A stretch of 64,000 nucleotides of DNA from Eubacteriales bacterium (GTDB lineage: Bacteria > Bacillota > Clostridia > Oscillospirales > CAG-272). A program made the position numbers and the translations under genes. The stretch is from positions 7,955 through 71,954 of the forward strand of contig JAZQWJ010000051.1 of the NCBI GenBank assembly GCA_045632285.1, read 5' to 3'. Under the pieces are notes generated by a model, which was not told the DNA's origin, did no database searches, and saw nothing but the letters and a program-made list of their open reading frames with translations. Below are positions 4,298 to 52,203 of the stretch, piece by piece; the stretch's first letter is position 1; each line of letters starts with the position of its first letter.

Positions 4298-5214
4298 CAA
4301 AAGTATTTATTGACGGCTCTGCCGGCACCACGGGTCTGCGCATTCACGAGCGCTTGGCCGCGCGCGCCGATCTGGAGCTTTTGATCCTGCCGGAGGAGGC
4401 GCGCAAGGACCCCACCGCCCGCCGTGATATGCTGAAGGCGGCCGATATCGCGTTTCTCTGTCTGCCTGATGCCGCCGCTATCGAGGCCGTTGCACTGGCC
4501 GAGGGCTGTAACGTGCGGATCATTGACACCTCTACCGCGCACCGCGTCGATCCCAATTGGGTCTACGGCTTTGCTGAGCTGACGGGATACGATAAGATCG
4601 CCGCAGCCACGCGCGTGGCCAATCCCGGCTGCCACGCCAGCGGATTTTTGGCGCTGACCACGCCCCTTGTGCGGGCGGGACTTTTGAAAAGTGATGCCGC
4701 GCTTACCTGCTTTTCGCTGACCGGCTACTCGGGCGGCGGAAAAAAGATGATCGCCGATTATGAGGGAGAGGGCAGAGATGCGCTTTTAAAGGGTCCCCGT
4801 CAGTATGCTCTGGGGCAAAGCCATAAGCATCTGCCTGAGATGGTGCAGATCGCGGGCCTTTCAAGCGCCCCTGTGTTCTGTCCTATCGTAGGGGATTTTT
4901 ACAGCGGTATGGAAGTGACCGTTCCGGTTTTTGCAAAGGATCTGATGGGCACTGTTGAGGAGCTTAAGGCCGTATACCGTGAGACCTACAAGCGCGGACT
5001 TGTTCGCTTTACCGAGGATGAGGGAGAAGGCGGCTTTTTGTCGGCCTCTGCTTTTTCGGGCAGAGATGATATGGAGTTGCGTGTTGCGGGCAACGGCGAC
5101 CGTATATTGCTGGTGGCTCGCTTTGACAACCTCGGCAAGGGCGCCTCGGGTGCCGCCATTCAAAATATGAACGTGATGCTTGGTGCCAACGAGACCACCG
5201 GGCTGGTCGTATAA
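4294..5214 (+). CDS. argC: N-acetyl-gamma-glutamyl-phosphate reductase (short form)
   Basis: 306 aa. Overlaps the argH stop by 4 nt (ATGA). Has the GCHASG active-site cysteine context and an FDNLGKGASGAA C-terminal motif. Confidence 0.85.
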   Translation: MTKVFIDGSAGTTGLRIHERLAARADLELLILPEEARKDPTARRDMLKAADIAFLCLPDAAAIEAVALAEGCNVRIIDTSTAHRVDPNWVYGFAELTGYDKIAAATRVANPGCHASGFLALTTPLVRAGLLKSDAALTCFSLTGYSGGGKKMIADYEGEGRDALLKGPRQYALGQSHKHLPEMVQIAGLSSAPVFCPIVGDFYSGMEVTVPVFAKDLMGTVEELKAVYRETYKRGLVRFTEDEGEGGFLSASAFSGRDDMELRVAGNGDRILLVARFDNLGKGASGAAIQNMNVMLGANETTGLVV

Positions 5215-5227
5215 AGGAGAAAAAAGT

Positions 5228-6442
5228 ATGAAGATCATTTCCGGCGGCGTTTGTGCCGCAAAGGGCTTTAAAGCAAACGGCATTCACTGCGGCATTCGCA
5301 AAAACCGCACCAAAAAGGATCTGGCGCTGATCGTCAGTGACGTGCGTGCTTCTGCCGCTGCTGTTTACACCACCAATCTGGTCAAGGGCGCACCCCTGAC
5401 CGTAACCAAGCAGCATATTGCCGACGGCTTTGCACAGGCAGTGATCTGCAACAGCGGAAACGCCAACACCTGCAACGCCAATGGCATCGAGATCGCGGAA
5501 AAAATGAGCGAGCTGGTGGCAAAGGAGCTGAACATTGCCGCCACCGACGTGGTGGTCGCCTCCACCGGTGTGATCGGCCAGCCCCTGAATATCGAGCCCA
5601 TTGCAAACGGTCTGCCCGCGCTTGCCGCAGGGCTTTCCGCAAATGGCGGCGAGGCTGCTGCAGAGGGCATTATGACCACCGATACCGTGAAAAAGGAGAT
5701 TGCCATCGAGTTCGAGATCGGCGGCAAGACCTGCCGCCTTGGCGGTATTGCCAAGGGCAGCGGTATGATCCACCCCAATATGGCAACGATGCTGGTGTTT
5801 ATTACCACCGACGTGGCCATTTGTGCCGCTATGCTGGAAAAGGCACTGAAGCATGACGTGCAGAATACCTTTAATATGACCAGTGTGGACGGAGATACCT
5901 CTACCAACGATATGGTCACCGTGCTGGCAAACGGTATGGCAGGCAATGCCGAGATCACCGAGGACGGCGCAGATTTTAGAGCGTTTATGAAGGCGCTGAA
6001 CACCGTAACCGTTCACCTCTGCCGCGAGATCGCGGGCGACGGTGAGGGTGCCACAAAGCTGTTGGAGTGCAAGGTCAGCGGCGCGGCAGACGACAAAACT
6101 GCCAAGACGGTCGCAAAGAGCGTGATCTGCTCCAGCCTTTTAAAGGCGGCTATGTTTGGCGCGGATGCCAACTGGGGTCGTGTGCTGTGCGCCATCGGCT
6201 ACAGCGGTGCTGACGTAGACGTGAACAAGGTTGACGTGTCCTTCCGCTCTCCCAAGGGCACCGTGGTCGTTTGCAAGAACGGTGCGGGTGTGGAATTCTC
6301 TGAGGAGATCGCAAAAGAGATCCTGCTGGAGCGTGAGATCGAGATCCTGATCGGGCTGAACAGCGGTGATTTTGACGCAACCGCCTTTGGCTGCGACTTG
6401 ACGTATGATTACGTCAAAATAAATGGAGACTATCGCACCTGA
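5228..6442 (+). CDS. argJ: Bifunctional ornithine acetyltransferase / N-acetylglutamate synthase
   Basis: Starts MKIISGGVCAAKGFKANG. Self-cleavage site context GMIHPNMATMLVFITTD and C-terminal YVKINGDYRT. AAAGGAG RBS. Confidence 0.95.
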   Translation: MKIISGGVCAAKGFKANGIHCGIRKNRTKKDLALIVSDVRASAAAVYTTNLVKGAPLTVTKQHIADGFAQAVICNSGNANTCNANGIEIAEKMSELVAKELNIAATDVVVASTGVIGQPLNIEPIANGLPALAAGLSANGGEAAAEGIMTTDTVKKEIAIEFEIGGKTCRLGGIAKGSGMIHPNMATMLVFITTDVAICAAMLEKALKHDVQNTFNMTSVDGDTSTNDMVTVLANGMAGNAEITEDGADFRAFMKALNTVTVHLCREIAGDGEGATKLLECKVSGAADDKTAKTVAKSVICSSLLKAAMFGADANWGRVLCAIGYSGADVDVNKVDVSFRSPKGTVVVCKNGAGVEFSEEIAKEILLEREIEILIGLNSGDFDATAFGCDLTYDYVKINGDYRT

Positions 6443-7162
6443 TACGAAATAAGCGGCGCGATGCGTCGTTGCTCCTCGCAGGCGAACTCGACGATCGTCA
6501 AGATCGCCGTTGCCCGTCTGCTGCGGTGCGCCTAGCCTCGCTTGCTTCTTTCGCCTCAGGGCATAGCCGGAGATGCGAGATAAGCGGCGCATAGCTGTGT
6601 TCTTTTTAAAAGTTTTGGCCTCGCTTTTTCAAAAGCGAGCGGGCGCATGTCAACTTGCCTGCGGCAAATAACTTGCCTGCGGCAAGTAGGATAACTTTGG
6701 CTTGCCGAGCAACGGCTCGGCATTTTGCCACGCAAAACCGCCAAACTTACGGCGGCGCCCCATATACGGCATGTTCTTTTTGCTAGCTTTTCATCTTTCT
6801 AAGCTCGCCGTTGGCGAGCAAACGGAGATTTTGCAACGGCTAAGCCGTTGATTTGCAAGCAAATTACCAAAATCTCTTGTGCCTTACATAGGCAAAAGAA
6901 AAAGCGACTAAGGAGGCTTGATTTGCTCAAAACAGCGTAGCCGCAAAGCTTTTCAACCTCCATAGCCACTTTTTCTTTGACGGAAGAAGCCGCAAAGAAA
7001 AAGTTATCAAAAAGAAACGGCGTTTTCGTGGGCTCTGCCCACACCCGCGACCTTTTGAAAAAGGTCGATCAAAACCTTCCCCAAGCGCACGCCGCTCCGC
7101 GAAGGCATATGACGAATAAGTGCCCTAACGGTACGAAAAAACACATATTTTAAGAGGAAATC
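6443..7162. repeat. Non-coding spacer densely packed with short perfect hairpins, splitting the arg cluster
   Basis: 720 nt with no credible ORF. At least nine distinct inverted repeats of 5-9 bp: 6620-6639, 6671-6687, 6703-6722, 6738-6755, 6803-6819, 6834-6850, 6851-6864, 6880-6894, 7048-7067. The 15-mer ACTTGCCTGCGGCAA is repeated at 6653 and 6671. Confidence 0.7.
6468..6546. repeat. Copy A of a dispersed ~78-nt intergenic repeat
   Basis: GTTGCTCCTCGCAGGCGAACTCGACGATCGTCAAGATCGCC...GCGGTGCGCCTAGCCTCGCTTGC aligns without gaps to 12299-12377. About 69 of 78 positions are identical by hand alignment. Confidence 0.75.
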
Positions 7163-8041
7163 ATGAACATCGACAATCATTTTTCCAACGCGCAGCGCGC
7201 CGAGGTGTTGACCCAAGCGCTGCCCTATATCAAAAAATATCACGGCAAGGTCATCGTTGTAAAATACGGTGGAAACGCTATGATCAATCAGCATCTCAAG
7301 GAGCAGGTGATGGAGGATATCGCCCTGCTTTGGTTGATCGGCGTCAAGGTGGTGCTGGTGCACGGCGGCGGCCCCGAGATCAATGAGGTGATGAACAAAT
7401 TTGGCAAACAGCCGGAATTTGTAGACGGCCTGCGCGTGACGGATAAAGAGACCGTGGATATCGTGCAGATGGTGCTGGCGGGCAAGGTCAACAAATCGCT
7501 GGTCACGCTGCTGCAGATGAAGGGCGGTCACGCCGTGGGCCTTTCGGGTATTGACGGCGGCTTGATCGAGGCAAGGGTCAAGGACGAGCGCCTTGGCTTT
7601 GTGGGTAAGATCACCAAGATCCGTCCTCAGCCCATTCAAAGCCTGCTGGAAAACAATTATATCCCCGTGGTATCTACTGTGGCCAGCGACAAGCAGGGCA
7701 ACGTGTATAACATCAACGGTGACACTGCCGCCGCTTATATTGCGGGGGCGTTGGGCGCGGAACGCCTGATCATGATGACGGATATCGCAGGCATCCTGCG
7801 CGACAAGGACGATCCCTCTACGTTGATCCCGCACATCACGATCAGCGAGGCTACCAAGCTGTATGAAGAGGGCGTGATCTCGGGCGGCATGATACCCAAG
7901 GTGGATTGCTGTATCGAGGCGTTGCGCCGCGGTGTGAAGGACGTGACCATTATGGATGGCCGTGTGCCGCACTCCATTTTGATGGAGCTGCTCACAGACG
8001 AGGGCGCAGGCACGATGGTGAAGGGAGAGCGCGATGAGTAA
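7163..8041 (+). CDS. argB: Acetylglutamate kinase
   Basis: 292 aa. Motifs VVKYGGNAM and LVHGGGPEI are typical of the amino-acid kinase family member ArgB. AAGAGGA RBS. Confidence 0.95.
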   Translation: MNIDNHFSNAQRAEVLTQALPYIKKYHGKVIVVKYGGNAMINQHLKEQVMEDIALLWLIGVKVVLVHGGGPEINEVMNKFGKQPEFVDGLRVTDKETVDIVQMVLAGKVNKSLVTLLQMKGGHAVGLSGIDGGLIEARVKDERLGFVGKITKIRPQPIQSLLENNYIPVVSTVASDKQGNVYNINGDTAAAYIAGALGAERLIMMTDIAGILRDKDDPSTLIPHITISEATKLYEEGVISGGMIPKVDCCIEALRRGVKDVTIMDGRVPHSILMELLTDEGAGTMVKGERDE

Positions 8042-9197
8042 GCTGCAGGAGCTGGATCGGCAATATGTTGCGGGCACCTATGCGCGCTTTCCCGTAGAGA
8101 TCGTGCGCGGCAAGGGCTCTTTGGTCTATGATACCGAGGGCAAGGAATATATCGATATGGGCACCGGCATCGGCGTGACTGCCTTTGGCGTTTGTGACGA
8201 TGCTTGGCAAGCTGCAGTGATCGGGCAGCTTGGTCGTGTGCAGCATACCTCTAACCTGTATTATACCGAGCCCTGCGCCAAGCTTGCAGAGCTGTTATGT
8301 ACCAAAACGGGTTTGAAAAAAGTGTTTTTTGGCAATTCGGGAGCCGAGGCCAACGAGTGCGCCATCAAGGTGGCACGCAAATATGCCGCCGAGAAAAAAG
8401 GCCCTGAATACAACGTGATCGTGACCCTGAAAAACAGCTTTCACGGCCGCACGCTCACCACTTTGGCTGCCACCGGGCAAGAGCATTATCACGAGTTGTT
8501 TCAGCCCCTTACCCCCGGCTTTGTGCACGTGGAGGCAGGAAATATCGACGAGCTTTTGCAGACCGTGGCCGACTGTAAGGTGGCAGGTATTCTGATCGAG
8601 TGCATTCAGGGCGAGGGCGGTGTCAACGTGGTAGACGGTGATTATATCCGCGCTGTGGCGGCTCTGTGTGAAAAAGAGGACATCGTCTTTATGGTAGACG
8701 AGGTGCAGACCGGAAACGGCCGCACCGGCCGGCTGTATGCTTATATGAACTTTGGCGTGACCCCCGATGTGGTCACCACGGCCAAGGGTCTTGGCGGCGG
8801 ATTGCCCATCGGCGCTTGCCTGCTTGGCGAGAAGGTGGAGGGCGTGTTAGGGTTTGGAGACCACGGCTCAACCTACGGTGGAAACCCTGTTGCCAGTGCG
8901 GGCGCGTGCAGCGTGATCTCTCGTATTGACGACAGTCTGCTTGCCGACGTGCGCCAAAAAAGCGCATACGTGTTTGATATTTGCAAGCACGCCCCCGGCG
9001 TGAAGTCGGTCAGCGGCCTTGGACTGATGATCGGCCTTGAGACCGAAAAGCCCGCAGGCGAGATCGTGAAGGCCTGTATTGAAAAGGGCGTTTTGTGTTT
9101 GACGGCCAAGAGCAAGGTGCGCTTGCTGCCCGCGCTCAATATCCCTATGGAGCAATTGAAAAAAGCAATCGAGATCATTTTGGATTGCTGCAAATGA
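8034..9197 (+). CDS. argD: Acetylornithine aminotransferase (class III PLP)
   Basis: 387 aa. Overlaps argB by 8 nt. Motifs FFGNSGAEANE, DEVQTGNGRTG and the TTAKGLGGG PLP-lysine region. Confidence 0.9.
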   Translation: MSKLQELDRQYVAGTYARFPVEIVRGKGSLVYDTEGKEYIDMGTGIGVTAFGVCDDAWQAAVIGQLGRVQHTSNLYYTEPCAKLAELLCTKTGLKKVFFGNSGAEANECAIKVARKYAAEKKGPEYNVIVTLKNSFHGRTLTTLAATGQEHYHELFQPLTPGFVHVEAGNIDELLQTVADCKVAGILIECIQGEGGVNVVDGDYIRAVAALCEKEDIVFMVDEVQTGNGRTGRLYAYMNFGVTPDVVTTAKGLGGGLPIGACLLGEKVEGVLGFGDHGSTYGGNPVASAGACSVISRIDDSLLADVRQKSAYVFDICKHAPGVKSVSGLGLMIGLETEKPAGEIVKACIEKGVLCLTAKSKVRLLPALNIPMEQLKKAIEIILDCCK

Positions 9198-9206
9198 GGA
9201 GTTACT

Positions 9207-10193
9207 ATGAACTTGAAAGGTAAAAGCTTTTTAAAGCTGTTGGATCTGACCCCCGAGGAGATCGGCGGTCTGATCGATCTTGCTGCTGAGTTGAAGGCAA
9301 AGAAAAAGGCGGGCATTCCCCACCGTCTTTGCGAGGGCAAGAGCATTGCACTGATTTTTGAAAAGACCAGCACCCGTACCCGCTGTGCCTTTGAGGTGGC
9401 TGCCGCCGATCTTGGTATGCATCCCACCTATCTGGATCCCTCCGGATCTCAGATCGGCAAAAAGGAGAGCATCCCCGATACCGCCCGCGTGCTTGGCCGT
9501 ATGTATGACGGCATCGAGTACCGCGGCTTTGGTCAGGAGATCGTAGAAAGTCTGGCAAAATATGCGGGCGTGCCTGTGTGGAACGGCCTGACCAACGAGT
9601 TTCATCCCACCCAGATCCTGGCCGATTTTTTGACCATTCGTGAGCATTTTGGCGAGCTGAAGGGTAAAAAGCTGGTGTATCTGGGCGATGCGCGCTATAA
9701 CATGGGCAACTCGCTGATGGTGGGCTGCGCCAAGATGGGTATGCATTTTGTGGCCGCCGCCCCCAAGAAATATTGGCCCGAGGCCGCCCTTGTGGCAGAG
9801 TGCAAGGCCATTGCTAAGGAGACCGGTGCGACCATTGCCTTTGAGGAGGACCCCAAGGCAGCCGTGGTGGGTGCCGACGTGCTTTATACCGACGTGTGGG
9901 TATCGATGGGCGAGCCCAAGGAGATCTTTGCCGAGCGCATTCGTGATCTCAGCCCTTACCGCGTGACCAAAGAGTTGATGGATATTGCCGGCGCGCAGTG
10001 CCGCTTTATGCACTGTCTGCCCGCCTTCCACGATCTTGGCACCGTGATCGGCCGCGAGATCCACCAGCAGTTTGGCATTGACTGCATGGAGGTCACCGAC
10101 GAGGTGTTTGAAAGCGAGCGCTCGATCGTGTTTGACGAGGCTGAAAACCGTATGCACACCATCAAGGCCGTGATGGCGGCAACCTTGGTGTAA
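9207..10193 (+). CDS. argF: Ornithine carbamoyltransferase
   Basis: 328 aa. Motifs STRTR, HPTQ and HCLPA. Confidence 0.95.
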
Positions 10194-10226
10194 GAGCAGG
10201 CGCCTTGCATGCTTGGCCATATAAAG

Positions 10227-10257
10227 AAAACGCACCCCGATCGGGGTGCGTTTTTTT
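10227..10257. terminator. Bidirectional terminator between argF and the HPr-like gene
   Basis: CGCACCCC-GATC-GGGGTGCG stem flanked by an A-run upstream and T7 downstream. Confidence 0.85.
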
Positions 10258-10273
10258 GATACCGTTTGGGCAC

Positions 10274-10507
10274 TTATTCTGCAACGATAAAGCGAGAAAG
10301 AGCCTCAAACAGCTCGGTGGTGTCGTCAGAATGTGCGGTAAGCGTGATGGGAGAGAGCAGATCCAGGCTGAAGATGCCCATAATGGATTTGCCGTCTACC
10401 AGATAGCGGCCGGAGGCCAGATCAATATCGATATCGCTTGCGGCCACAATATTGACAAAGTCGCGGACGTCGGCGATGGTGGAAAGGCGGATCTTAACAC
10501 TTTTCAT
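10274..10507 (-). CDS. HPr-fold protein lacking the catalytic histidine
   Basis: A 77-aa ORF forming the C-terminal tail of the spurious 712-aa track ORF. Sequence MKSVKIRLSTIADVRDFV...DGKSIMGIFSLDL. The KSIMG..SL region resembles the HPr Ser46 region, but there is no His15-type GIHARPA motif. GGAG RBS before the ATG at 10507. Confidence 0.6.
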   Translation of the reverse strand: MKSVKIRLSTIADVRDFVNIVAASDIDIDLASGRYLVDGKSIMGIFSLDLLSPITLTAHSDDTTELFEALSRFIVAE

Positions 10508-10625
10508 GACAGGTACTCCTTTTTTATTTGTTGCTATCATTATAGCGGCATCGGGGAGGTTTGTCAAGCGATTTAAAAGAAGAAATTTCAAAACGGAAAA
10601 ACGCACAAAACAGGGGTGCAAACCC

Positions 10626-10654
10626 TTGACATTCTTATAAAAAAGGTGTATAAT
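10626..10654 (+). promoter_or_regulatory. Sigma-A promoter for rny
   Basis: TTGACA, 17 nt, TATAAT. Sits about 85 nt upstream of the rny ATG. Confidence 0.7.
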
Positions 10655-10738
10655 AACATAATGTATACAATGGTGAAGAATTGGCTTTTTGTATATATGA
10701 AATTTTAAAAACAAATTCTGAAAAGGAGGTAAATCAAC

Positions 10739-12280
10739 ATGAATTTGGGACTTGCAATCGGCTTGATTGCAGCTGCTCTTGTTCTGGGTGCCGTTGTTGG
10801 CTTTGTGATCCGCCGTTTTATTGCGGAAAAAAAGATCCACGGTGCCGAGGCAGAGGCCAAGCGCATTCTTGCAGATTGCGCACAGCAGGCTGAAGCGATG
10901 AAAAAAGAGCGCTTGCTTGAGGCAAAGGACGAGATCCTGCGCCAGCGCAACGATGCCGAGGCTGAACTGAAGGAACGTCGTGCAGAGGTCAAGAGCGCCG
11001 AGCGCCGTCTGATCCAAAAAGAAGAAAATCTGGATCACAAATCCGAAGCACTGGACCGTAAAAACGAGACCCTTGAGCAGAAGATCCACGAAAATGATGC
11101 TCTGCGCGAGGAGATCGCCGCAACTCTTGCCCAACACAAAAAGGTTTTGGAGGACTTGGCGGGTATGACTGCCGAGGAGGCCAAGGACGAGCTGCTGGAG
11201 CGTGTAGAGGGTGAGGTCAAGCACGAGCTTGCGCAACGCCTTGACGAGCTGGATGCTCAGTTTAAGGATGAGGCCGAGACCAAGGCACGCAACATCCTTT
11301 CCCTTGCCATTCAGCGTTGCGCCACCGATCACGTGGCAGAATCCACCATTTCTGTGGTGCAGATCCCCAGCGAAGAAATGAAGGGACGCATCATCGGTCG
11401 TGAGGGCCGTAACATCCAAAAGCTGGAGACCCTGACCGGTGTTGAACTGATCATTGACGACACGCCCGAGGCGATCACGCTTTCCGGCTTTGACCCTGTC
11501 CGCCGCGAGGTGGCCCGTCTCACCCTGGAAAAGCTGATCTCTGACGGTCGCATCCATCCCGCCCGCATCGAGGAAACGGTGGAAAAATGCCGCCGCGAGG
11601 TCGATGCCGTGGTGAAGCAGGCGGGCGAGCGCGCCACTTATGAGGTGGGTATCCCCAACCTGCATCCCGATCTTGTCAAGCTGCTTGGCCGCTTGCGCTA
11701 CCGTACCAGCTACGGTCAAAACGTGCTGAAGCACTCGATCGAGGTCGCTTTCCTTGCCGGCATTATGGCAGAGGAGCTGGGTGTTGATGCCGCTGCCGCT
11801 AAGCGCGCAGGCTTGCTGCACGATATCGGCAAGGCATTCCCCCACGACGTAGAGGGAACTCACGTTGAGCTTGGTGTCAACGTGGCACGCAAGTATAAAG
11901 AAAGAAACGACGTGATCCACGCCATCGAGGCGCATCACAATGACGTAGAGCCCCAGACCGTTATCGCTATTTTGGTACAGGCCGCCGATGCCATTTCCGC
12001 ATCTCGCCCCGGTGCCCGTCGTGAGGATCTGGAGAACTACATCAAGCGCTTGCAGAAGCTGGAGGAGATCGCCACCGGCTTTGAGGGCGTTGAAAAGGCA
12101 TTTGCCATTCAGGCCGGCCGCGAGCTGCGCGTAATGGTCAAGCCCGAGGACGTGACCGACGAGGGTATGAAGCTGATCGCACGCGAAATGGCCAAAAAGA
12201 TCCAGGATGAGGTCAAGTACCCCGGACAGATCAAGGTCAACCTGATCCGCGAGAGCAGAGCAGTGGATTACGCCAAGTAA
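10739..12280 (+). CDS. rny: Ribonuclease Y
   Basis: 513 aa. N-terminal TM helix, a coiled-coil region rich in E/K/A, a KH domain ([11 protein letters not shown]) and an HD domain (LLHDIGKA). Confidence 0.95.
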
Positions 12281-12298
12281 AAAGCGTCGCGCTCCTGT

Positions 12299-12377
12299 GT
12301 TGCTCCTCGCAGACGAACTCGACGATCGCCAAGATCGCCATCGCCCGTCTGCTCCGGTGCGCCTTGGATCGCTCGCT
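12299..12377. repeat. Copy B of the dispersed ~78-nt intergenic repeat
   Basis: See copy A at 6468-6546. Located directly 3' of rny. Confidence 0.75.
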
Positions 12378-12455
12378 TTTCCAAAGCTTCGCATTGCGTC
12401 GTTGTTCCTCAAAAGCGGCTCGACGTAGATATACTACGCCTTCGCCTTGCTTTTT

Positions 12456-12517
12456 GCGGTACGCCTAGCACTGCTCGCTTTTGGCGGTGCGCTCCGGTGC
12501 GCCTTGGATCGCTTGTT
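12456..12517. repeat. Two further partial copies of the repeat's 3' module
   Basis: GCGGTACGCCTAGCACTGCTCGCTT (12456-12480), and GCTCCGGTGCGCCTTGGATCGCTTG (12491-12515) which is 24/25 identical to 12351-12375. The module TGCGTCGTTGYTCCTC also recurs at 6462 and 12395. Confidence 0.65.
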
Positions 12518-12546
12518 TCTAGGCAACCGATGCAATCAAACACAAA

Positions 12547-12579
12547 AGTCACCCTGTGTAAGGCGCAGGGTGACTTTTT
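12547..12579 (+). terminator. Terminator after rny and the repeat block
   Basis: AGTCACCCTG / CAGGGTGACT 10-bp stem followed by TTTTT. Confidence 0.8.
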
Positions 12580-12605
12580 ATATGTAAATATTATTATATA
12601 TCCAT

Positions 12606-12634
12606 TTGACATTTTCACAATTATATGTTATACT
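12606..12634 (+). promoter_or_regulatory. Sigma-A promoter for the DUF512-der-obg-ppa string
   Basis: TTGACA, 17 nt, TATACT. Confidence 0.65.
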
Positions 12635-12687
12635 ATAAGGTGATAAAGTCTGTTTTGGCAAAAAATCAAGGAAGGGGAGAGCAGAAT

Positions 12688-14013
12688 ATGGTTCGTATTA
12701 CCGCAGTTTTGGAAAACAGCCGTGCAGAGCGGGCGGGCGTGCAAAACGGCGATATGCTGGTTTCGATCAACGGAAACGAGATCGCTGACGTTTTGGACTA
12801 CCGTTTTTATCTGGCTGAGAGCTGTATCGTGCTGTCGCTCTTGCGTGGCGATGTTCCCTATACCGTTACGATCCGTAAGGATATATACGACGACATCGGC
12901 CTTGATTTTGAAACGCCGCTGATGGATAAAAAGCAGTGCTGCGCCAACAAGTGTATCTTTTGCTTTATCGATCAGCTGCCAAAGGGACTGCGTCCGTCGC
13001 TCTATTTTAAGGACGACGACTCGCGCCTTTCCTTTTTGCACGGCAATTACATTACGCTGACCAATATGCGGGAGGCCGATATTGACCGCATCATCAAGAT
13101 GCACATTTCTCCGGTCAACGTGTCGGTACATACCACAAATCCCGAGTTGCGTTGTGAAATGATGAAGAATCGCCGCGCCGGTGAGGTGCTGAAGTATTTG
13201 GATAAGCTGGCTGCGGCGGGCATCCGCATCTGTGGGCAGATCGTGTTATGCCGCGGGATCAACGACGGTGCTGAGCTGACCCGATCTATGGAGGATCTGG
13301 CAAGGCTACACCCCGCGCTCAGCAGTGTTTCGGTGGTGCCTGCGGGACTGACGCGCTTTCGTGAGGGACTGTATCCGCTGACCTCCTTTACAAAAGAGGA
13401 GTGCCGCGCCGTGATCGAGCAGGTCAATGCCTTTGGCGATCATTGCGAGCGCGAATACGGTGCGCGTATCTTCTGCTGTGCCGATGAGTTTTATCTCAAG
13501 GGTGAGGTACCGCTACCCGAGGAGGCCTATTACGGCGAGTATGAGCAGATCGAAAACGGTGTTGGTATGCTGCGCTCTCTGATGGCCGAATTTGGCCGCG
13601 AGCTGGAATATCTGCAGGACTATCTGTCCGGGCAGGTCAAGCCCTTCCGCACTGTGTCCATTGTAACGGGCGAGGCGGCTGCTCCCACCCTACAGGCACT
13701 GGCCAATGCCTTGATGTGTCGCAAAAACGATATAACGGTGCGCGTTTTTACGTGCAAAAACAACTTTTTTGGGCCTGAGATCAATGTGGCGGGTCTGCTG
13801 ACGGGTCGCGACGTTTGTCAGCAGCTTGCGGGCAAGGAGCTTGGCGACGAGCTATTGATCCCCGCAACGATGCTGCGTGCCGAAAAGGATCTTTTCCTTT
13901 GCGGGATGACCCCTGCCGAGTTATCCGAAACATTAAACGTTCCGATCCGTCCCGTACGCGGTGACGGTGCCGAGCTGCTTGCTGCAATGCTTGGCGTTGA
14001 ATGCCCTTATTGA
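12688..14013 (+). CDS. DUF512 / PDZ-domain protein with a radical-SAM-type cysteine motif
   Basis: Start MVRITAV with a GGGGAG RBS. PDZ-like N-terminus (AGVQNGDMLVSINGNEI). CANKCIFC is a CxxxCxxC motif. This family commonly precedes der in Clostridia. Confidence 0.75.
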   Translation: MVRITAVLENSRAERAGVQNGDMLVSINGNEIADVLDYRFYLAESCIVLSLLRGDVPYTVTIRKDIYDDIGLDFETPLMDKKQCCANKCIFCFIDQLPKGLRPSLYFKDDDSRLSFLHGNYITLTNMREADIDRIIKMHISPVNVSVHTTNPELRCEMMKNRRAGEVLKYLDKLAAAGIRICGQIVLCRGINDGAELTRSMEDLARLHPALSSVSVVPAGLTRFREGLYPLTSFTKEECRAVIEQVNAFGDHCEREYGARIFCCADEFYLKGEVPLPEEAYYGEYEQIENGVGMLRSLMAEFGRELEYLQDYLSGQVKPFRTVSIVTGEAAAPTLQALANALMCRKNDITVRVFTCKNNFFGPEINVAGLLTGRDVCQQLAGKELGDELLIPATMLRAEKDLFLCGMTPAELSETLNVPIRPVRGDGAELLAAMLGVECPY

Positions 14014-26256: not shown

Positions 26257-27221
26257 TTCTTCAGCAGCCTTTCAAAGTGGGGCAGCAGGTTATCTGCATA
26301 GAACTGGAAGCCGAAGGCATTGGGGTGCAGACGGCGGTCGGCGTATACGTCGGGGATGTGGGGGGTCAGCTCCATACCGTCTACCACGTCGATGTCAAAG
26401 TGGGCGGCGGCCTCGCGGATGATGGTGCGCATATCCTCAAAGCTGCCAACGGCGGTGATGCGGTTCATGTCGCCTCGCCACAGGGGCAGGATCTGCACGA
26501 TGGGAATGCTCGGGTACTTGTCGCGCAGGCGGGCCAAATGGCCGTTGCAGCAGCCCACAAGGCGGCCCCTTGTGGTGCCGGACCAGTCGTTGGTGCCGTA
26601 GGCCACGGATACAAGATCGGGTGCAAAGTCCAGCTGATCGTCAACGGCGCGGGGGTTAAAGCGTTCGCCGCCGATGCCCTGATTGACCACCTCGGCATCC
26701 AGCGCACGCGCCACCTGATGGGCATAGGTCATCGAGGCGTAGGTAGAGGTCGAACCGTGGGTGATGGAGTCACCGATAAAGAGAATGCGGTGCTTGGGTG
26801 CTGCGGCCTCCTTGAAGATGGAGCCCTCTTTCAGCGTTACGTCGCAGATCTGACCTGCGCTGTGATGGGGGAAGTAGATGGTTACGGTCTTCTCGCCTGC
26901 GGGGAGCTTGACCTCCATACGGCCGCGACCTGCGCCGCAGCCCGTGTGGGCGTACATCACGCCGTCGGCCCACACGTCAAAGCTGTGGTCGCCGCCTGCG
27001 GGGGTGGAGATCCAGGAAAAGCCGAGGCTCTTGGAATCGGTGACGAATTTACAAACGATGCCCGAGGTGTGGAACATAGCGCCGTGAAAGCGATCGCCTT
27101 CGGGATAAATATGCTCACGTACGTATTTGCCGTAGCGGTACAGCACAAGGAGGCCGTCGCGCTCGGTGATCTCGGCAGCGCCCCGGATGGTGGAGCGCAG
27201 CTGCTCGTTATTCAAAATCAT
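26253..27221 (-). CDS. SGNH/GDSL hydrolase with N-terminal beta-sandwich domain (CE2-like architecture)
   Basis: FIGDSITHG block I, GTNDW, and the DxxH region (ADRRLHPN). ATG at 27221 with AGGAG 8 nt upstream is preferred over the GTG at 27230. Confidence 0.8.
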   Translation of the reverse strand: MILNNEQLRSTIRGAAEITERDGLLVLYRYGKYVREHIYPEGDRFHGAMFHTSGIVCKFVTDSKSLGFSWISTPAGGDHSFDVWADGVMYAHTGCGAGRGRMEVKLPAGEKTVTIYFPHHSAGQICDVTLKEGSIFKEAAAPKHRILFIGDSITHGSTSTYASMTYAHQVARALDAEVVNQGIGGERFNPRAVDDQLDFAPDLVSVAYGTNDWSGTTRGRLVGCCNGHLARLRDKYPSIPIVQILPLWRGDMNRITAVGSFEDMRTIIREAAAHFDIDVVDGMELTPHIPDVYADRRLHPNAFGFQFYADNLLPHFERLLKK

Positions 27222-27235
27222 ATCGGTCACTCCTT

Positions 27236-28213
27236 TCAGTCAAGATGGGGCTTGATGGCCGCATACAGGGCACTTGCGTAGAACTTAAAGCCATAGTCGT
27301 TGGGGTGCAGATACTTGTCCGCACAGACCTCGGGTAGATGGGGGATCATCTTGGCGCCGTCCACCACAACGATGCCCTCCTGAGCAGAGGCGGCGTCGGC
27401 TACGATCTGCACGCCCTCTGTAAAGCTGCCAACCTTGGTGATGCGGTCGTCGTCGGCGCGCCAGATGGGGGTGATGGCAAAGATCTTGGCCTTGTGATAG
27501 GTCGTGCGGAGCTTTGCGTAAAACTCGTTGGCGCACTGCACCGTACGCTCACGCTCCTGACCGCTCCAGTCGTTGGTGCCGTAGGCCACGGTGATGATAT
27601 CGGGGGCGAAATCCATATCGGGGTCGATCAGCGCGGGGCGGAAGATCTCGCCACCGATGCCTTGATCCACCATCTCGGCATCCAACTTGTCAGCAAGGAG
27701 ATTGGCGTAGGTCTGAGAAGAATATTTGGCATCGTAGCCCTGGGTGATGGAGTCACCGAAGCAGAGCAGACGGCGACTTTTTTCAATGGGCTGCAGGGTA
27801 GCGCCGTCGGAGAGGGTGACGTTTGACAGGGTGGCCTTTGCAAGGCAGGGGAGGTACACGGCCACGCGATGCTCGCCCTCGGGGAGCTTGACCGTGACGG
27901 TAGAGGCCGCCTCGCGCAGTCCCTCGTGACCAAAGTGTTGCACCATAATGCCGTCTACGAATACGTCAAAAAAGTAAAAGCGGCGGCTGGAGGCAATGTT
28001 GATGTTGTAGTCAAATGAGAATTTTTCAGCGTCGGTCACAAACTCCAAACGCACGCCCGAGGTGGCGGGGACCTTAACACGGAAATCGTTGATGTCCTCA
28101 TAGAGCTTTGCCTGGTAGTCGGTAAAGCGGTGGAAGGTGAAGATGCCGTTCTCCTCGGTCACCGACAGGGCGCCGTGGGTGACGGAACGGATCTGTTCAA
28201 GCGTCAGTTTCAT
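27236..28213 (-). CDS. SGNH/GDSL hydrolase, paralog of the downstream gene
   Basis: CFGDSITQG, GTNDW, DKYLHPN. Same two-domain layout as 26253-27221, with less than half of positions identical by eye. AAAGGAG RBS before the ATG at 28213. Confidence 0.8.
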   Translation of the reverse strand: MKLTLEQIRSVTHGALSVTEENGIFTFHRFTDYQAKLYEDINDFRVKVPATSGVRLEFVTDAEKFSFDYNINIASSRRFYFFDVFVDGIMVQHFGHEGLREAASTVTVKLPEGEHRVAVYLPCLAKATLSNVTLSDGATLQPIEKSRRLLCFGDSITQGYDAKYSSQTYANLLADKLDAEMVDQGIGGEIFRPALIDPDMDFAPDIITVAYGTNDWSGQERERTVQCANEFYAKLRTTYHKAKIFAITPIWRADDDRITKVGSFTEGVQIVADAASAQEGIVVVDGAKMIPHLPEVCADKYLHPNDYGFKFYASALYAAIKPHLD

Positions 28214-42182: not shown

Positions 42183-43127
42183 ATGTTGAAGGTTGGCGTA
42201 CAGTCTGCTGGCTGGTATTCTAAAGACGATCCCGTTGGCTCTTGCGAGTACATCAAGGAATGTGGCTTTGAGGCGATGGATTTCAATATCGATCATTACC
42301 TGAGTGTGGGTAAATTGATCAAGGAGGGCGTTTACCCCTCGTTTTTTGACAAGAGCATCGAGGAGATCCTGACGTTCTTCACCCCCCTCAAGGAGGCAAG
42401 CGAAAAGACCGGCGTTGCCGTTGGTCAGATGCACGCGCCCTTCCCGGTTTGGGTCAAGGACCGCGAGGAGATCAACGACTATATCTTTATGGCGCTGGAC
42501 AAGTGCTTTGCCGTGGCAGAGTATCTGAATTGCCCTGCCATCGTGGTGCATCCTGTCAACCGCTCTACCAGAGAGAAGGAGTGGGACACCAACCTGATGA
42601 TCTACCGCCGTCTGATCCCCGTGATCAAAAAGTACAAGGGCGTTAAGATCTGCCTGGAGAACATCTTCAGCCGCCGTCCCAACCGCATCATCGAGGGTCG
42701 CCTTGCTAACGCAGAGGAGGCCTGCCGCATGATCGACCTGCTCAACAAGGAGGCAGGCGGTGACTACTTTGGCTTCTGCCTTGACGTGGGTCACGCCAAT
42801 CTGACCAACCGTAACATCAAGGAGTACGTCAAGGAGCTGGGCGATCGCCTCACCATCCTGCACATCCACGACAACAACGGCTTTGAGGATATGCACATGA
42901 TCCCTTATTCCTATCTGGCAACCCCCTCCAGCCACGTGTGCGACTGGCAGGGCTTTGTAGAGGGTCTGAAGGAGATCGGCTACAAGGGCGTGCTGGCCTT
43001 TGAGACCTTCCGTATCTTCTCGGCTTATCCCGTTCCCTGCCGCAAGGCCGCGCTGAACCTGATCAGCTCCATCGGCCACTACTGGGCCGAGTGCATCGAC
43101 GATCCCAACTGGCCCGCAGCAAAATAA
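42183..43127 (+). CDS. Xylose-isomerase-like TIM-barrel protein, paralog 1
   Basis: 314 aa. MLKVGVQSAGWY, AIVVHP, CLEN, DVGHAN, HIHDN, FET. AGGAGG RBS. Confidence 0.8.
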   Translation: MLKVGVQSAGWYSKDDPVGSCEYIKECGFEAMDFNIDHYLSVGKLIKEGVYPSFFDKSIEEILTFFTPLKEASEKTGVAVGQMHAPFPVWVKDREEINDYIFMALDKCFAVAEYLNCPAIVVHPVNRSTREKEWDTNLMIYRRLIPVIKKYKGVKICLENIFSRRPNRIIEGRLANAEEACRMIDLLNKEAGGDYFGFCLDVGHANLTNRNIKEYVKELGDRLTILHIHDNNGFEDMHMIPYSYLATPSSHVCDWQGFVEGLKEIGYKGVLAFETFRIFSAYPVPCRKAALNLISSIGHYWAECIDDPNWPAAK

Positions 43128-43137
43128 TGATAAATCA

Positions 43138-43162
43138 TATGGGCGCGGTATCCGCGCCCATA
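43138..43162 (+). other. Intercistronic stem-loop between paralogs 1 and 2
   Basis: TATGGGCGCGG-TAT-CCGCGCCCATA is an 11-bp perfect stem with no U-tract. It sits 10 nt after the stop and 20 nt before the next ATG. Confidence 0.6.
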
Positions 43163-43181
43163 CGTGTAAAGGAGAGCAGTT

Positions 43182-44129
43182 ATGTTAAAAGTAGGTGTAC
43201 AGTCCTGCGGTTTTTACCGCGATGACGACCCCGTAGGATCTTTGGAATATATCAAGGCAAGAGGCTTTCAGTCTGTGGACTTCAACATTGATCTGAAAAT
43301 GCCCGTGGGCCGCCTTGTCAAGCAAAAAAACGGCCCGTTTGACAGCTTTTTCAGCAAATCCACCGAGGAGATCCTGGATTTTTATCGCCCCTTAAAGGAC
43401 GCCATCGCGCAGACCGGCGTGACCGTGGATCAGATGCACGCGCCCTTTCCCAGCTTTTTTCCCGGATATGACGAGCTCAACGACTATCTTTTCGAGGGCG
43501 TAGTCAAGTCCATGGCGGTCTGTCAGCTGGTCGGCTGCCCCGCCATCGTGGTGCATCCCACCCAGCGCTCTACCTTTGAAAAGGAGTGGGATACCAATCT
43601 GGCAAACTATCGCCGCCTGATCCCCGCCGCAAAGAAATACGGCGTTAAGGTGTGTCTGGAGAATATTTTCAACAACCGCGGCGGACGTATGGTAGAGGGT
43701 CGCCTTTCCAACGCCGCCGATGCCTGCCGTCTGATCGATCAGCTCAACGAGGAGGCGGGTGAGGAGTGCTTTGGCTTTTGTTTTGACATCGGCCACGCCA
43801 ATCTCACCAACCGCAACGTCAAGGAGTACGTCAAGACCCTTGGCCACCGTTTGACGATCCTGCACATTCACGACAACAACGGCAAGGATGATCTGCATAT
43901 GATCCCTTACTCCTATCTGGCAACGCCCAACCTGCATTCGATCGACTGGCAGGGCTTTGTAGAGGGCTTAAAGGAGATCGGCTACAAGGGCGTGCTCGGC
44001 TTTGAGGTCTGCCGCACCTGGATCGCTTATCCCAAGGCAGTGCACGATCTTATGCTGAACTTTGTGGCGGGCATCGGCAAATACTGGGCCGAGTGCATCG
44101 ACGACCCCGATTGGCCCGCAAAAAAGTAA
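43182..44129 (+). CDS. Xylose-isomerase-like TIM-barrel protein, paralog 2
   Basis: 315 aa. MLKVGVQSCGFY, AIVVHP, CLEN, DIGHAN, HIHDN, FEV. Confidence 0.8.
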   Translation: MLKVGVQSCGFYRDDDPVGSLEYIKARGFQSVDFNIDLKMPVGRLVKQKNGPFDSFFSKSTEEILDFYRPLKDAIAQTGVTVDQMHAPFPSFFPGYDELNDYLFEGVVKSMAVCQLVGCPAIVVHPTQRSTFEKEWDTNLANYRRLIPAAKKYGVKVCLENIFNNRGGRMVEGRLSNAADACRLIDQLNEEAGEECFGFCFDIGHANLTNRNVKEYVKTLGHRLTILHIHDNNGKDDLHMIPYSYLATPNLHSIDWQGFVEGLKEIGYKGVLGFEVCRTWIAYPKAVHDLMLNFVAGIGKYWAECIDDPDWPAKK

Positions 44130-44137
44130 CAAAAATA

Positions 44138-44171
44138 ACAGAAAACCCCGACACGTGTCGGGGTTTTCTGT
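44138..44171. terminator. Bidirectional terminator (34-nt perfect palindrome)
   Basis: ACAGAAAACCCCGACAC / GTGTCGGGGTTTTCTGT. Confidence 0.9.
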
Positions 44172-44189
44172 TGTTTAACTCGTTTGCGC

Positions 44190-45194
44190 TCAATCGATCC
44201 TTACCAGTACCTTGCCCCGCTTGGTGAGCGCGGGAGCAAGCATTTCTGCGGCGGCCTCATCCATCGAAAGCTCACCTGCGATGATCTTATCGGTCTGCAA
44301 TACGCCGCTTGCCAGCACCTGCACCGCACGGTCAGTGGTGTGAGGATTGACAAAGGAGGTCTTGATGGTCAGTTCCTTGCAGAAGGCATCATAGAGCGAA
44401 ATGGGCAGCTTCACCGCAGAATCGCTGACGCCGAACATCACAACGGTCGCACCCTTGCCTGCCACAGCCAGAGCCGTTTCCTGCGCAGGACCAACGCCAA
44501 CACATTCAATAACACGCTGAACGGGGTGCGTTTCGGCGTATTTTGCGATCGCCTCACTATCCTGCGCAGGCAGGAAAAGCGTGGCGCCAAGCTCCATCGC
44601 AAGGCCTCGGCGTGCCTCGTTGGCATCGATCACCAGAACCTCACCCGCACCCGCATTTTTGATCAGCTGCAGCATCATGGCACCGATGGCACCAAGGCCG
44701 ATCAGCGCAACACGCTCACCGTGGCGAATGCCAAGCAGATCCATACCGCGCAAGCAACAAGCAAGGGGCTCGCAAAGCGCGGCGTCGCGCAAAGAAAGGC
44801 CGGAGGGGAGGGGATATACGTTTTCTTCGGGAGAAACCACAAACTCGGCCATTCCCTTTACAACGCCTCGTCCGTTTTCGCAAAAGGAGCTTTGGCCGTT
44901 TTTGCAGTAATAGCATTTCCCGCAGGTCCAGTTGGGATCCACCGTTACGGGGTCGCCGACGCGAAATGCGGTCACACCCTCGCCGATAGCCTCAACCACA
45001 CCGGAGATCTCGTGTCCAAGCGGCACGGGATAGCGCACAGGGTGGGTATTCTTTTTGCCTGCGACCTTATGAAAATCACTGCCGCAAATGCCGCAAAATG
45101 CGACCCGTACCCGCACTTCTCCGGCTTTGGGAATGGGGGTTGGAAGCTCGCCCACGGTCACATTGCCGGGGTCGTTCAAAATCACTGCCTTCAT
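44190..45194 (-). CDS. Zinc-dependent alcohol/polyol dehydrogenase (MDR family)
   Basis: MKAVILNDPG..., the catalytic zinc region CGICGSDFH...GHEISG, a structural-zinc Cys cluster CGKCYYCKNG, and Rossmann GLGAIG. AAGGAG RBS. Confidence 0.85.
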   Translation of the reverse strand: MKAVILNDPGNVTVGELPTPIPKAGEVRVRVAFCGICGSDFHKVAGKKNTHPVRYPVPLGHEISGVVEAIGEGVTAFRVGDPVTVDPNWTCGKCYYCKNGQSSFCENGRGVVKGMAEFVVSPEENVYPLPSGLSLRDAALCEPLACCLRGMDLLGIRHGERVALIGLGAIGAMMLQLIKNAGAGEVLVIDANEARRGLAMELGATLFLPAQDSEAIAKYAETHPVQRVIECVGVGPAQETALAVAGKGATVVMFGVSDSAVKLPISLYDAFCKELTIKTSFVNPHTTDRAVQVLASGVLQTDKIIAGELSMDEAAAEMLAPALTKRGKVLVRID

Positions 45195-45278
45195 TTTTCG
45201 CGCTCCTTGCTGTTTTTTATCATTATAGCACAAGCACAAACACAATACAAGGATTTTTCAAAAAGTTCCTGCAATGGC

Positions 45279-45307
45279 TTGACATTTCCGATCTGCTTTT
45301 TTATAAT
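45279..45307 (+). promoter_or_regulatory. Sigma-A promoter for TIM-barrel paralogs 3 and 4
   Basis: TTGACA, 17 nt, TATAAT. Divergent from the ADH gene. Confidence 0.7.
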
Positions 45308-45372
45308 GGAGGTAACTGCAAGAAAAGGACAGTCCCCTTGCGGAATTTTTGAAAACCTTGGAGGGTTTTATT

Positions 45373-46305
45373 ATGCTGAGAATTGGTGTGCAGTCTGCGG
45401 GCTGGTATAACAAGGACGATCCCGACGGCTCCTTTGCTTTTATCAAGTCCTGCGGCTTTGATGCAACTGACTTTAACATTGACCACTACCTGTCCACCGG
45501 CGCTCTTGCCAAGAGCCCCGATGCGCCCCACTCCTTCTTTGACAAGAGCATTGAGGAGATCCTGGAGTTCTTTACCCCTTTGAAGGAAGCCTCCGAAAAG
45601 CACGGTGTGGCCATTGCACAGATGCACGCACCCTTCCCGGTGTGGATCAAGGACCGCGAGGATATCACCGAGCACGCCCTGATGGCGGTTGAAAAGTGCC
45701 TGCAGGTCTGTGAGTACGTGGGCTGTCCCGCCATCGTGGTGCACCCCGTTGGCCGTTCCACCAAGGAAAAGGAGGTTGCCTGCAACATGGCGATCTATCG
45801 CCGCCTGATGCCCATGGCCGTTAAGACCGGGGTAAAGGTGTGCCTTGAGAATTTGTTTGGCACCTACAAGGGCCGTGTGATCGAAGGCCCTTGCGCCGAC
45901 GTGAACGAGGCTTGCTGGTATCTGGATACCCTCAATGCCGAGGCCGGCTGTGATGCCTTTGGCTTCTGCCTGGATATCGGCCACGCCAACCTGCTGGGCC
46001 GTAACATCAAGGAATACGTCAAAAAGCTGGGCAACCGTCTGACCGTGTTGCACATTCACGACAACGACGGCAGAGGCGATCTGCACGGCATGCCCTATAC
46101 CTTTACCCGCAACTGGGGCGCAGATTGGATCTGCGACTGGGACGGCTTTGTAGATGGTCTGAAGGAGATCGGCTACCAAGGTGCGCTGGGCTTTGAGACC
46201 TTCCGCGTGATCTGCTCCAACTTCCCCCGCGCACTTTGGCCCGAGGCACTGAAGCTGATCAGCGCAACCGGCCGCTACTGGGCAAGCCGCATTGAGGCGG
46301 AATAA
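45373..46305 (+). CDS. Xylose-isomerase-like TIM-barrel protein, paralog 3
   Basis: 310 aa from MLRIGVQSAGWY. GGAGGG RBS. AIVVHP, CLEN, DIGHAN, HIHDN, FET. Confidence 0.8.
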   Translation: MLRIGVQSAGWYNKDDPDGSFAFIKSCGFDATDFNIDHYLSTGALAKSPDAPHSFFDKSIEEILEFFTPLKEASEKHGVAIAQMHAPFPVWIKDREDITEHALMAVEKCLQVCEYVGCPAIVVHPVGRSTKEKEVACNMAIYRRLMPMAVKTGVKVCLENLFGTYKGRVIEGPCADVNEACWYLDTLNAEAGCDAFGFCLDIGHANLLGRNIKEYVKKLGNRLTVLHIHDNDGRGDLHGMPYTFTRNWGADWICDWDGFVDGLKEIGYQGALGFETFRVICSNFPRALWPEALKLISATGRYWASRIEAE

Positions 46306-46317
46306 GGAGCGATCGCC

Positions 46318-51302: not shown

Positions 51303-51316
51303 TGCATTTTTTGCGG

Positions 51317-52180: not shown

Positions 52181-52203
52181 GATCAATACCTCCGTTTTTA
52201 TGA

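Follow-up and report, generated by a model that had tools for sequence, protein, structure and literature searches.

The 64-kb window analysed here (a 64,000-nucleotide (nt) stretch of contig JAZQWJ010000051.1 from an Eubacteriales bacterium) contains three full copies of a hairpin repeat which, to judge from sequence searches, apparently belongs to a large, uncatalogued family. One unit follows argJ and two follow rny; at least 117 further loci are found in other genomes. Each unit is one long imperfect hairpin, foldable on either strand. The fold is preserved while the sequence changes, and its pairs are kept by compensatory changes beyond those seen in controls. Copies persist across species, duplicate in tandem and decay by internal deletion. 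A first-pass annotation of the window had noticed the repeat and described it as a mosaic of small intergenic modules. The repeat itself, and its description as a dispersed intergenic family, are borne out; the sub-modules are not independent pieces but the conserved 5' and 3' arms of a single fixed architecture, with a gap of 47 nt between the two conserved blocks in each of the three window units. The hairpin fold, the covariation and the spread across phyla were absent from that annotation.

The genes upstream of the repeats are argJ (ArgJ, 5228-6442, PF01960) and rny (RNase Y, 10739-12280, PF12072/PF01966), both on the + strand. The repeat finder aligns 6448-6547 with 12279-12378 over 100 nt without gaps at 84% identity; the 78-nt repeat first reported falls within this match. 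A central 66-nt stretch (6468-6533 and 12299-12364) is 92.4% identical by blastn within the window (E = 1e-21). The smaller modules are also present where they had been placed, as judged by the same two programs. TGCGTCGTTGYTCCTC is found at 6462-6477 and 12395-12410 (15 of 16 positions identical), and a 3' module is found by the repeat finder at 6504-6547, 12335-12378 and 12475-12518. A 23-mer is exactly repeated at 12351-12373 and 12491-12513, and a weaker copy of the 3' module lies at 12455-12469. The pieces at 12395 and 12456 had been taken for independent modules; they are the two arms of a full unit, U3 (Table 1). The piece at 12491 likewise belongs to a 3'-arm fragment. U3 has its central stems swapped on both sides of the helix relative to U2, with AAAAGC/GCTTTT in place of GCAGACG/CGTCTGC and CGTAG/CTACG in place of CGATC/GATCG.

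The core-pair pattern GTTGYTCCTC-N42-52-GGTRCGCCTWG has three matches in the window, all on the + strand and each with a 47-nt gap; it occurs in none of 100 dinucleotide-preserving shuffles of the window. A covariance model built from 128 copies (R1) also finds the three units. Beyond these, no further full copy is found in the window by blastn, R1 or a sequence profile. Isolated pieces are deletion remnants. One of them, a 5'-arm fragment at 6577-6607, is only weakly assigned: ATAAGCGGCGC occurs at both 6449 and 6580 and the fragment was aligned by eye to the 5' arm of U1, and it has no significant covariance-model match. Model searches of 6550-7170 and 12470-12600 return generic hairpins only.

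The repeats start at the stop codon (TGA 6440-6442 and TAA 12278-12280), on the strand of the upstream gene and 5' of the terminator, as the first-pass annotation had stated. The terminator lies outside the repeat; the region 12541-12585 folds at -25.1 kcal/mol, and a promoter-like site for the gene 3' of rny is found at 12606-12634. The absence of coding content was likewise correctly described: the forward frames hold stops and the overlapping spurious open reading frames (ORFs) have no Pfam match. Long spurious ORFs run antisense through rny (10274-12412), the 3' end of argJ (6140-6592) and the repeats (12409-12618); those at 6140-6589 and 12409-12615 were searched against Pfam with no match.

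Units in general measure about 105-135 nt; a complete copy is about 125-135 nt long (median 134), and the units in the window are about 99-117 nt. The parts are an outer stem, a GATAA or TTCTGA-type internal loop, a second stem, the core helix, two variable stems and a small apical loop, in that order. Hairpin stability is -40 to -70 kcal/mol. The core is near-invariant and asymmetric: GYGTTGYTCCTC pairs with CGGTRCGCCTWG. The core helix (5'-GYGUUGYUCCUC / 5'-CGGURCGCCUWG) is irregular and runs G-C, U.G, bulged U, G-C, Y-R, U.U mismatch, C-G, C-G and finally Y.Y mismatches. With only 6 of 10 positions in correspondence, the core blocks do not form an inverted repeat of one another; these conserved boxes lie mid-arm, away from the hairpin base. 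It should be noted that the census was seeded with a regular expression for the core; core invariance is partly imposed by the pattern, and the figure for core conservation is inflated for this reason. R1 recovers copies outside the pattern, and these either are half-copies or differ from the core blocks at about 0-2 positions.

Compensatory change is found throughout the hairpin. RNAalifold, applied to a MAFFT alignment, predicts 22 pairs, 16 of which have compensatory double changes. When a 37-pair structure is laid over a MAFFT alignment that was not fitted to structure, 81.6% of cells pair; shuffling lowers this to 60.1% and sliding the partners along the alignment to 33-47%. The covariation score in this unfitted alignment is 0.52, versus 0.16 in shuffles. 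Overall the score is 0.52-0.62, versus 0.09-0.18 with slid partners, and the observed value is reached by none of 500 shuffles. In the model-fitted alignment 88.6% of cells pair and double changes occur in 33 of the 37 pairs. The Y/R pair of the core covaries cleanly, with 106 copies C-G, 18 U-A, 4 U-G and none C-A.

Genes around the copies were called crudely, as the longest ORFs in 8-kb loci, and the counts given here rest on such calls. A sense ORF of at least 100 codons ends no more than 70 nt from the core in 78 of 133 copies, and an antisense ORF ends past the 3' block in 29; raising the cut-off to at least 200 codons leaves 65 and 12. When ORFs of 150 codons or more are taken, 66 of the 82 sense stops fall 18-41 nt upstream of the core. 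Sense stops peak at the element's own TAA/TGA in the (T)GATAA loop, or 0-5 nt 5' of the outer stem; antisense stops are scattered over 13-149 nt, often with an intervening terminator. The upstream housekeeping genes are unrelated to each other and include queA (eight species), infB (six), purH (four), pgk, argF and ilvC. The next same-strand ORF begins within 120 nt on the 3' side in 29 of 71 copies; at one locus, L023, a copy fills the gap between two transketolase subunit genes. TTTT follows the outer stem in only 13 of 133 copies. The copies lie between a stop codon and a terminator or the next cistron, in the sense orientation, and would therefore normally be part of the mRNA. Counts of copies followed by a terminator were dropped because the simple terminator detector was unspecific and scored the control strand as often as the test strand.

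Some variants at these sites are worth recording. In one metagenome-assembled genome (MAG; L036, 60-200) queA has CAAGAAG in place of CAATAAG, and its ORF runs through the element to the TGA of the 3' CTTCTTGA loop. The readthrough reflects either an assembly error or a C-terminal extension of 33 residues. Further downstream at this locus, a second unit holds a copy of a different queA 3' end. At L023, a TwoAYGGAY match (4885-5042, 49.6 bits, gathering threshold 43) lies directly past the third element and overlaps the start of an M50 peptidase ORF.

A core-pattern scan of one genome per species gives at least 120 loci, with gut and soil bacteria among their sources. Three matches are due to chance: L004 and L025 are not matched by the model, and L044 reaches 13 bits. 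R1 gives 118 matches in the first 100 loci and more in the remaining loci, and a profile built from the census gathers 159 copies from 118 sources, the window included. The best E-values among family matches reach 1e-33. The main carriers among the matches listed are gut MAGs of Clostridia, Eubacteriales and Oscillospiraceae, together with Selenomonadales, Sporomusa and Dendrosporobacter. Single carrier genomes are found elsewhere, in Thalassolituus, Saccharospirillaceae, Geobacteraceae, Calditrichales and Deferribacteraceae. MAG contigs make up most of the carrier genomes, and at least one locus, a contig from an archaeal bin (L059), is probably mis-binned. Density is very uneven: the 540 kb of rny surroundings from 80 related gut Clostridia yield one weak match, and four copies stand behind four consecutive unrelated genes at L023, about one per gene.

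The family matches no catalogue entry that was searched, in agreement with the earlier statement that no named family fits. Rfam 15 has no match in the whole window at the gathering threshold, and at E of 10 or less nothing overlaps the units in 6300-12800. Rfam scans of the other loci return rRNA, tRNA and the one TwoAYGGAY, none of which overlaps an element. In literature searches with the core motifs on both strands, GGTGCGCCTTG or its complement appears in no paper found, and the 10-mers match unrelated primers only. No copies are found in 2.9 million viral contigs (IMG/VR) or in the plasmids of PLSDB; carriage on mobile replicons was rejected on these zero counts.

The history of individual copies can be followed by comparing sites. 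The window comes from an uncultured lineage of Clostridia/Oscillospiraceae, and relatives whose RNase Y is 87-97% identical bear those names. In the relative L207 (RNase Y 95% identical) the argJ-argB site is empty, with a 42-nt spacer that reads TAA-TGCCCTAACGG...-ATG. In the window the junction reads TGA, then 678 nt, then TGCCCTAACGG (7121-7131). The window thus carries an insertion exactly past the argJ stop, because the site of this 95% relative is empty. In L208, a 97% relative, the argJ-argB copy is internally deleted between two GCGG tetramers; the spacer there measures 151 nt, against the 42 nt of L207 and the 720 nt of the window. The insertion also holds a direct repeat, AACTTGCCTGCGGCAA, twice (6652-6695) and several small hairpins, as well as a long hairpin at 6894-6978 with A-run and T-run flanks (-28.9 kcal/mol). 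Its 3' end has a head-like GACGAATAAG at 7111-7120.

Past rny, the relatives have only decayed 5'-arm remnants beside the TAA. Close relatives (L201-L206) have a conserved motif in the 3' untranslated region (UTR), ..ACATAGAGCTTCTTTGCAAATGACGC-hairpin-GAGCGAGGAAATA.., about 60-160 nt past the rny stop and 5' of the rny terminator. The window is without this motif and has the repeat array in its place.

Across wider distances, many syntenic pairs hold a copy at the same site. In these pairs the element is 59-91% identical and the upstream coding DNA 62-95%; the downstream flank is 46-60% identical, which is the level of random alignment. L007 and L023 differ by the presence and absence of copies and by one inversion.

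Copies also adjoin stable-RNA genes, on the opposite strand. They are found at the 5' end of 23S rRNA in Sporomusa malonica (L026, 3540-3672) and in Calditrichales (L111), at extra 5S genes in the same Calditrichales locus, and at tRNA-Val in two Oceanospirillales genomes. The distance from the element to the mature 5' end is 0-6 nt at the 23S, 5S and tRNA-Val sites, and the head of the element faces the RNA gene; this arrangement is the reverse of that past protein genes. At a few Bacillota loci the head adjoins the ribosome-binding site of an opposite-strand gene. As the copies at stable-RNA genes and opposite genes lie on the opposite strand, the other strand would be transcribed there. An extra 5S-like copy is present in the 16S-23S spacer of S. 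malonica (L026, 3843-3956). L111 has three tandem 5S genes (5097-5788), the second and third of which each have an element 5' and a terminator 3'.

We would give an even chance to the following explanation, which is the one we prefer: a new structured repeat family of the REP, ERIC and MITE (miniature inverted-repeat transposable element) kind, co-transcribed with the gene in its 3' UTR or between cistrons, in which selection would act on the sense-strand RNA as a hairpin module. The conserved core may be a docking site for a putative trans-acting factor. The stable stem could form a 3'-end barrier or a processing point for the upstream cistron, as in REP, ERIC and Correia elements. Several features point to RNA, among them the anchoring of copies relative to genes described above. 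Among 55 apical tetraloops on the gene-sense strand, 31 are GNRA and 7 are UNCG, and none is the reverse complement of GNRA. The core has an invariant U.G, and its Y/R pair is never C-A; the inner stems contain 80 G.U pairs as against 45 A.C pairs.

Other results weigh against this explanation and leave the functional strand uncertain. In 106 of 128 copies the more stable fold is that of the reverse-complement strand (mean -54.3 versus -48.5 kcal/mol). Over all stems there are 159 G.U and 158 A.C pairs, with two special sites removed; in the outer stems A.C (113) exceeds G.U (78), and one site is A.C in 57 copies. Balanced pairs and a better opposite-strand fold are not what a pure one-strand RNA constraint predicts. 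The copies adjoining 23S, 5S and tRNA-Val genes are on the opposite strand, and at L007 the copy past one gene is inverted relative to its L023 ortholog. Intact copies are missing past rny and argJ in close relatives, and those copies are therefore dispensable. It should also be noted that the functional part of the explanation would rest on analogy with known elements.

Three further ideas were set aside. Orientation by replication strand, which would explain the sense bias as in IS200/IS605, is disfavoured: tight stop spacing is found on the head side only, the rRNA-adjacent copies are antisense and the two S. malonica copies are opposed. An outward promoter, or a Shine-Dalgarno sequence and start on the reverse strand (GAGGAG...), was considered by eye, and there is no conserved start codon or -10/-35. 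A SECIS-like recoding hairpin was rejected because each of the three stop codons is used and the genes have nothing unusual about them.

The family could instead be a selfish palindrome acting at the DNA level, in the manner of REPINs or MITEs, which we regard as less likely. Here the core would be a transposase or recombinase site on folded single-stranded DNA, the hairpin would be retained for the needs of that enzyme, and transcription and any effects on RNA would be incidental. The polymorphism of empty and filled sites between close relatives is as expected of such an element, as are the gain, loss and inversion of copies between related species, the patchy density (one weak match around rny in related gut Clostridia versus about one copy per gene at L023) and the sporadic copies in distant phyla. 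The balance of G.U and A.C, the better fold of the opposite strand and the occurrence of either orientation relative to transcription also fit; a DNA-level role is possible because a few copies are inverted beside rRNA and tRNA genes. The two conserved blocks which pair over a variable spacer resemble REPINs (PMC3337134).

Other observations speak against it. No terminal inverted repeats are common to the copies, whose outer stems vary. There is no target-site duplication: only 7 of 120 copies have matching 3-mers on their two flanks. No recurrent transposase-like neighbour is found in 117 loci of 8 kb. A TAA/TNA target duplication (IS5/Harbinger-like), suggested by the argJ junctions as a cause of the stop-codon anchoring, is unsupported across copies, and the search for a recurrent neighbouring gene gave clusters which reflect conserved synteny only. 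The selfish palindrome also has to contend with the absence of copies from the viral contigs and plasmids searched, with an enrichment of GNRA and UNCG that is confined to one strand, and with orthologous copies that are kept across species with compensatory change. It leaves the strict anchoring of the head to the stop, with a loose tail, unexplained. In the one complete genome sampled, the two copies are opposed within what is, from their coordinates, probably one replichore. A hairpin read as double-stranded RNA would work both ways and so would a DNA site; for this reason we rank selection of the sense-strand RNA first and the DNA palindrome second.

A further reading, improbable in our estimate, is that the hairpin is a form of gene punctuation: a new functional RNA class or an RNA-mediated mobile element, whose core recruits a conserved host factor. 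It could mark the 3' boundary of ORFs and, when inverted, the 5' boundary of 23S, 5S and tRNA for processing or protection. It could spread by reverse-transcription or template-switch copying onto transcript ends. As such spread would read RNA boundaries, it would account for junctions exactly at stop codons and mature 5' ends without target duplications.

That the family is a repeated transcription terminator or attenuator is very unlikely. The copies do stand at gene 3' ends with a very stable hairpin, and T-runs follow some of them (L059 and L020, for example). TTTT, however, is as rare as noted above, and the array in the window is followed by a separate canonical terminator. Many copies are intercistronic, including the one between transketolase subunit genes, and the 12-nt core shared by several phyla would be superfluous in a terminator.

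Still less probable, and largely refuted, is an integron attC or Xer-type site folded from single-stranded DNA. Such sites are imperfect palindromes placed like the present family, which is about 130 nt long and lies right past ORFs on the ORF strand; structure is conserved above sequence and the bottom strand folds better. GGTGCGC may resemble the opening 7 nt of the XerC arm in E. coli dif. No copy among 121, however, has the boxes RYYYAAC...GTTRRRY on either strand, the genes upstream are not cassettes but core housekeeping genes whose synteny is conserved, the conserved boxes are mid-arm and not at the base, and the same 117 loci have no integrase neighbour. Chance similarity, a local segmental duplication or a coding-gene remnant has a negligible probability and is refuted by the census: the window alone has only two loci, but the core-pair pattern is absent from the shuffles, more than 117 loci in other genomes have it at E-values down to 1e-33, and compensatory changes keep the pairing and not a reading frame, with stops in the forward frames and no Pfam match.

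Selection of the sense-strand RNA, the reading we prefer, draws on comparison with known repeats. In Enterobacteria and Pseudomonas, the hairpins of REPs and BIMEs (bacterial interspersed mosaic elements) lie in transcribed spacers, affect mRNA stability and bind host proteins (PMC3184786). REPINs consist of two conserved blocks which pair over a less conserved spacer into one long hairpin (PMC3337134). The present family resembles REPs, BIMEs and REPINs as a set of high-copy extragenic palindromes in transcribed spacers and at gene 3' ends. REPs, however, are 20-40 nt long, carry a GTAG/CGTC tag at one end and are linked to RAYTs (REP-associated tyrosine transposases, of the Y1 type), whose genes often have REPs at their flanks, whereas the unit here is about 130 nt and has no tag. 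GTAG is present in some apical stems (CGTAG..CTACG) and covaries away to GTAC, GATC and TTAC; no recurrent transposase-like ORF and no RAYT is found near the copies in the 117 loci. REPs are lineage-specific, whereas the core of this family is conserved across phyla and its 5' end is anchored at stop codons.

ERIC elements (also IRU) of Enterobacteria and Vibrio occupy transcribed intergenic regions as imperfect palindromes about 127 nt long; they fold as RNA and have been reported to alter the stability of flanking mRNA. The present units are alike in size, in palindromic form and in their transcribed intergenic position. Their hosts, in contrast, are Bacillota and the sequences are unrelated, and ERIC has no fixed orientation and no stop anchoring. 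The ERIC2 and BOXA1R primer sequences are absent from the copies at up to three mismatches. BOX elements are truly modular (boxA, boxB and boxC), whereas full copies of this family all have one fixed architecture. BOX, RUP and bcr1 elements of Firmicutes and Correia/NEMIS elements of Neisseria are nevertheless similar as small dispersed non-coding repeats with stable hairpins, which are co-transcribed and vary between strains.

MITEs are shorter than 200 bp and form long hairpins, with shared terminal inverted repeats and target-site duplications (PMC3184786). The family has the presence/absence polymorphism of MITEs at orthologous sites (the argJ-argB spacers, and L007 versus L023), but lacks both terminal repeats and duplications; unlike young MITEs, it has stems that diverge strongly among the copies of one genome. 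Integron attC sites such as the Vibrio cholerae repeats are imperfect palindromes of about 60-140 nt past ORFs, on the ORF strand and with conserved structure; they differ in the R''/R' boxes, which the copies lack, in their neighbours, which here are housekeeping operons, and in the position of the conserved boxes, here mid-arm. The family is closest in kind to REP/REPIN, ERIC and Correia elements, but lacks the defining features tested for each. Its unusual traits are stop-codon anchoring, an asymmetric core found across phyla, and long persistence with compensatory evolution.

If the family is indeed undescribed, as the searches suggest, Bacillota (many uncultured gut Clostridia, Sporomusa and Selenomonadales) gain a structured element that is both large as a family and well supported, with lineages in which it stands behind almost every gene in places. 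It creates spurious antisense ORFs, can lead to false gene calls, and bears on the annotation of 3' UTRs. It also offers a ready marker for strain typing, and more than 120 natural variants for structure probing. The coupling of the hairpin base to stop codons and, when inverted, to the mature 5' ends of rRNA and tRNA lies outside known REP, ERIC and MITE biology. Together with a core conserved from Clostridia to Gammaproteobacteria, this coupling points to a candidate trans-acting partner.

Table 1. Units, fragments and associated features of the hairpin repeat family; positions are those of the window unless a locus is named.
Feature	Position	Strand	Description	Basis
Unit U1	6441-6557	+	Full hairpin element directly past the argJ stop; 5' core block GTTGCTCCTC 6468-6477; 3' core block GGTGCGCCTAG 6525-6535; apical stem CGATC-GTCAA-GATCG	R1 97.4 bits (6433-6564, model positions 1-134); one hairpin, -40 kcal/mol; core-pair pattern match
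Unit U2	12278-12383	+	rny stop TAA fills the element's own ATAA loop position; 5' block 12299-12308; 3' block 12356-12366; outermost stem missing	R1 92.1 bits (12278-12383, model positions 15-121); fold z = -3.4 (+ strand), -4.6 (- strand)
Unit U3	12384-12482	+	Diverged tandem copy; 5' block GTTGTTCCTC 12401-12410; 3' block GGTACGCCTAG 12458-12468	R1 87.5 bits (12384-12482, model positions 19-118); same 47-nt block spacing
3'-arm fragment	12483-12529	+	GGTGCGC stutter; GGTGCGCCTTG at 12496-12506; outer 3' arm ..TTTCTAGGCAACCG	80% identical to 12335-12378; exact 23-mer in common with U2
5'-arm fragment	6577-6607	+	GAGATAAGCGGCGCATAGCTGTGTTCTTTTT; remnant of another unit, weakly assigned	Alignment by eye to U1 5' arm
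Insertion relative to the empty site of L207	6443-7120	+	678 nt; U1 first, then other small hairpins and repeats	Comparison with L207
Intrinsic terminator of the rny transcript	12548-12579	+	3' of the repeat array, outside the repeat; GTCACCCTG-N9-CAGGGTGAC-TTTTT	
Stable-RNA-flanking members	L111 975-1106, 5196-5328, 5483-5615; L106 (Thalassolituus) 7335-7466, 7854-7985; L005 5080-5209			

The window also contains three sets of tandem paralogous genes which are unrelated to the hairpin repeat. The first (42335-47147) has four units of about 1 kb at 63-89% identity. The second (51308-53059) has two units 887 nt apart at 78-95% identity. The third (26304-28171) consists of three diverged units.

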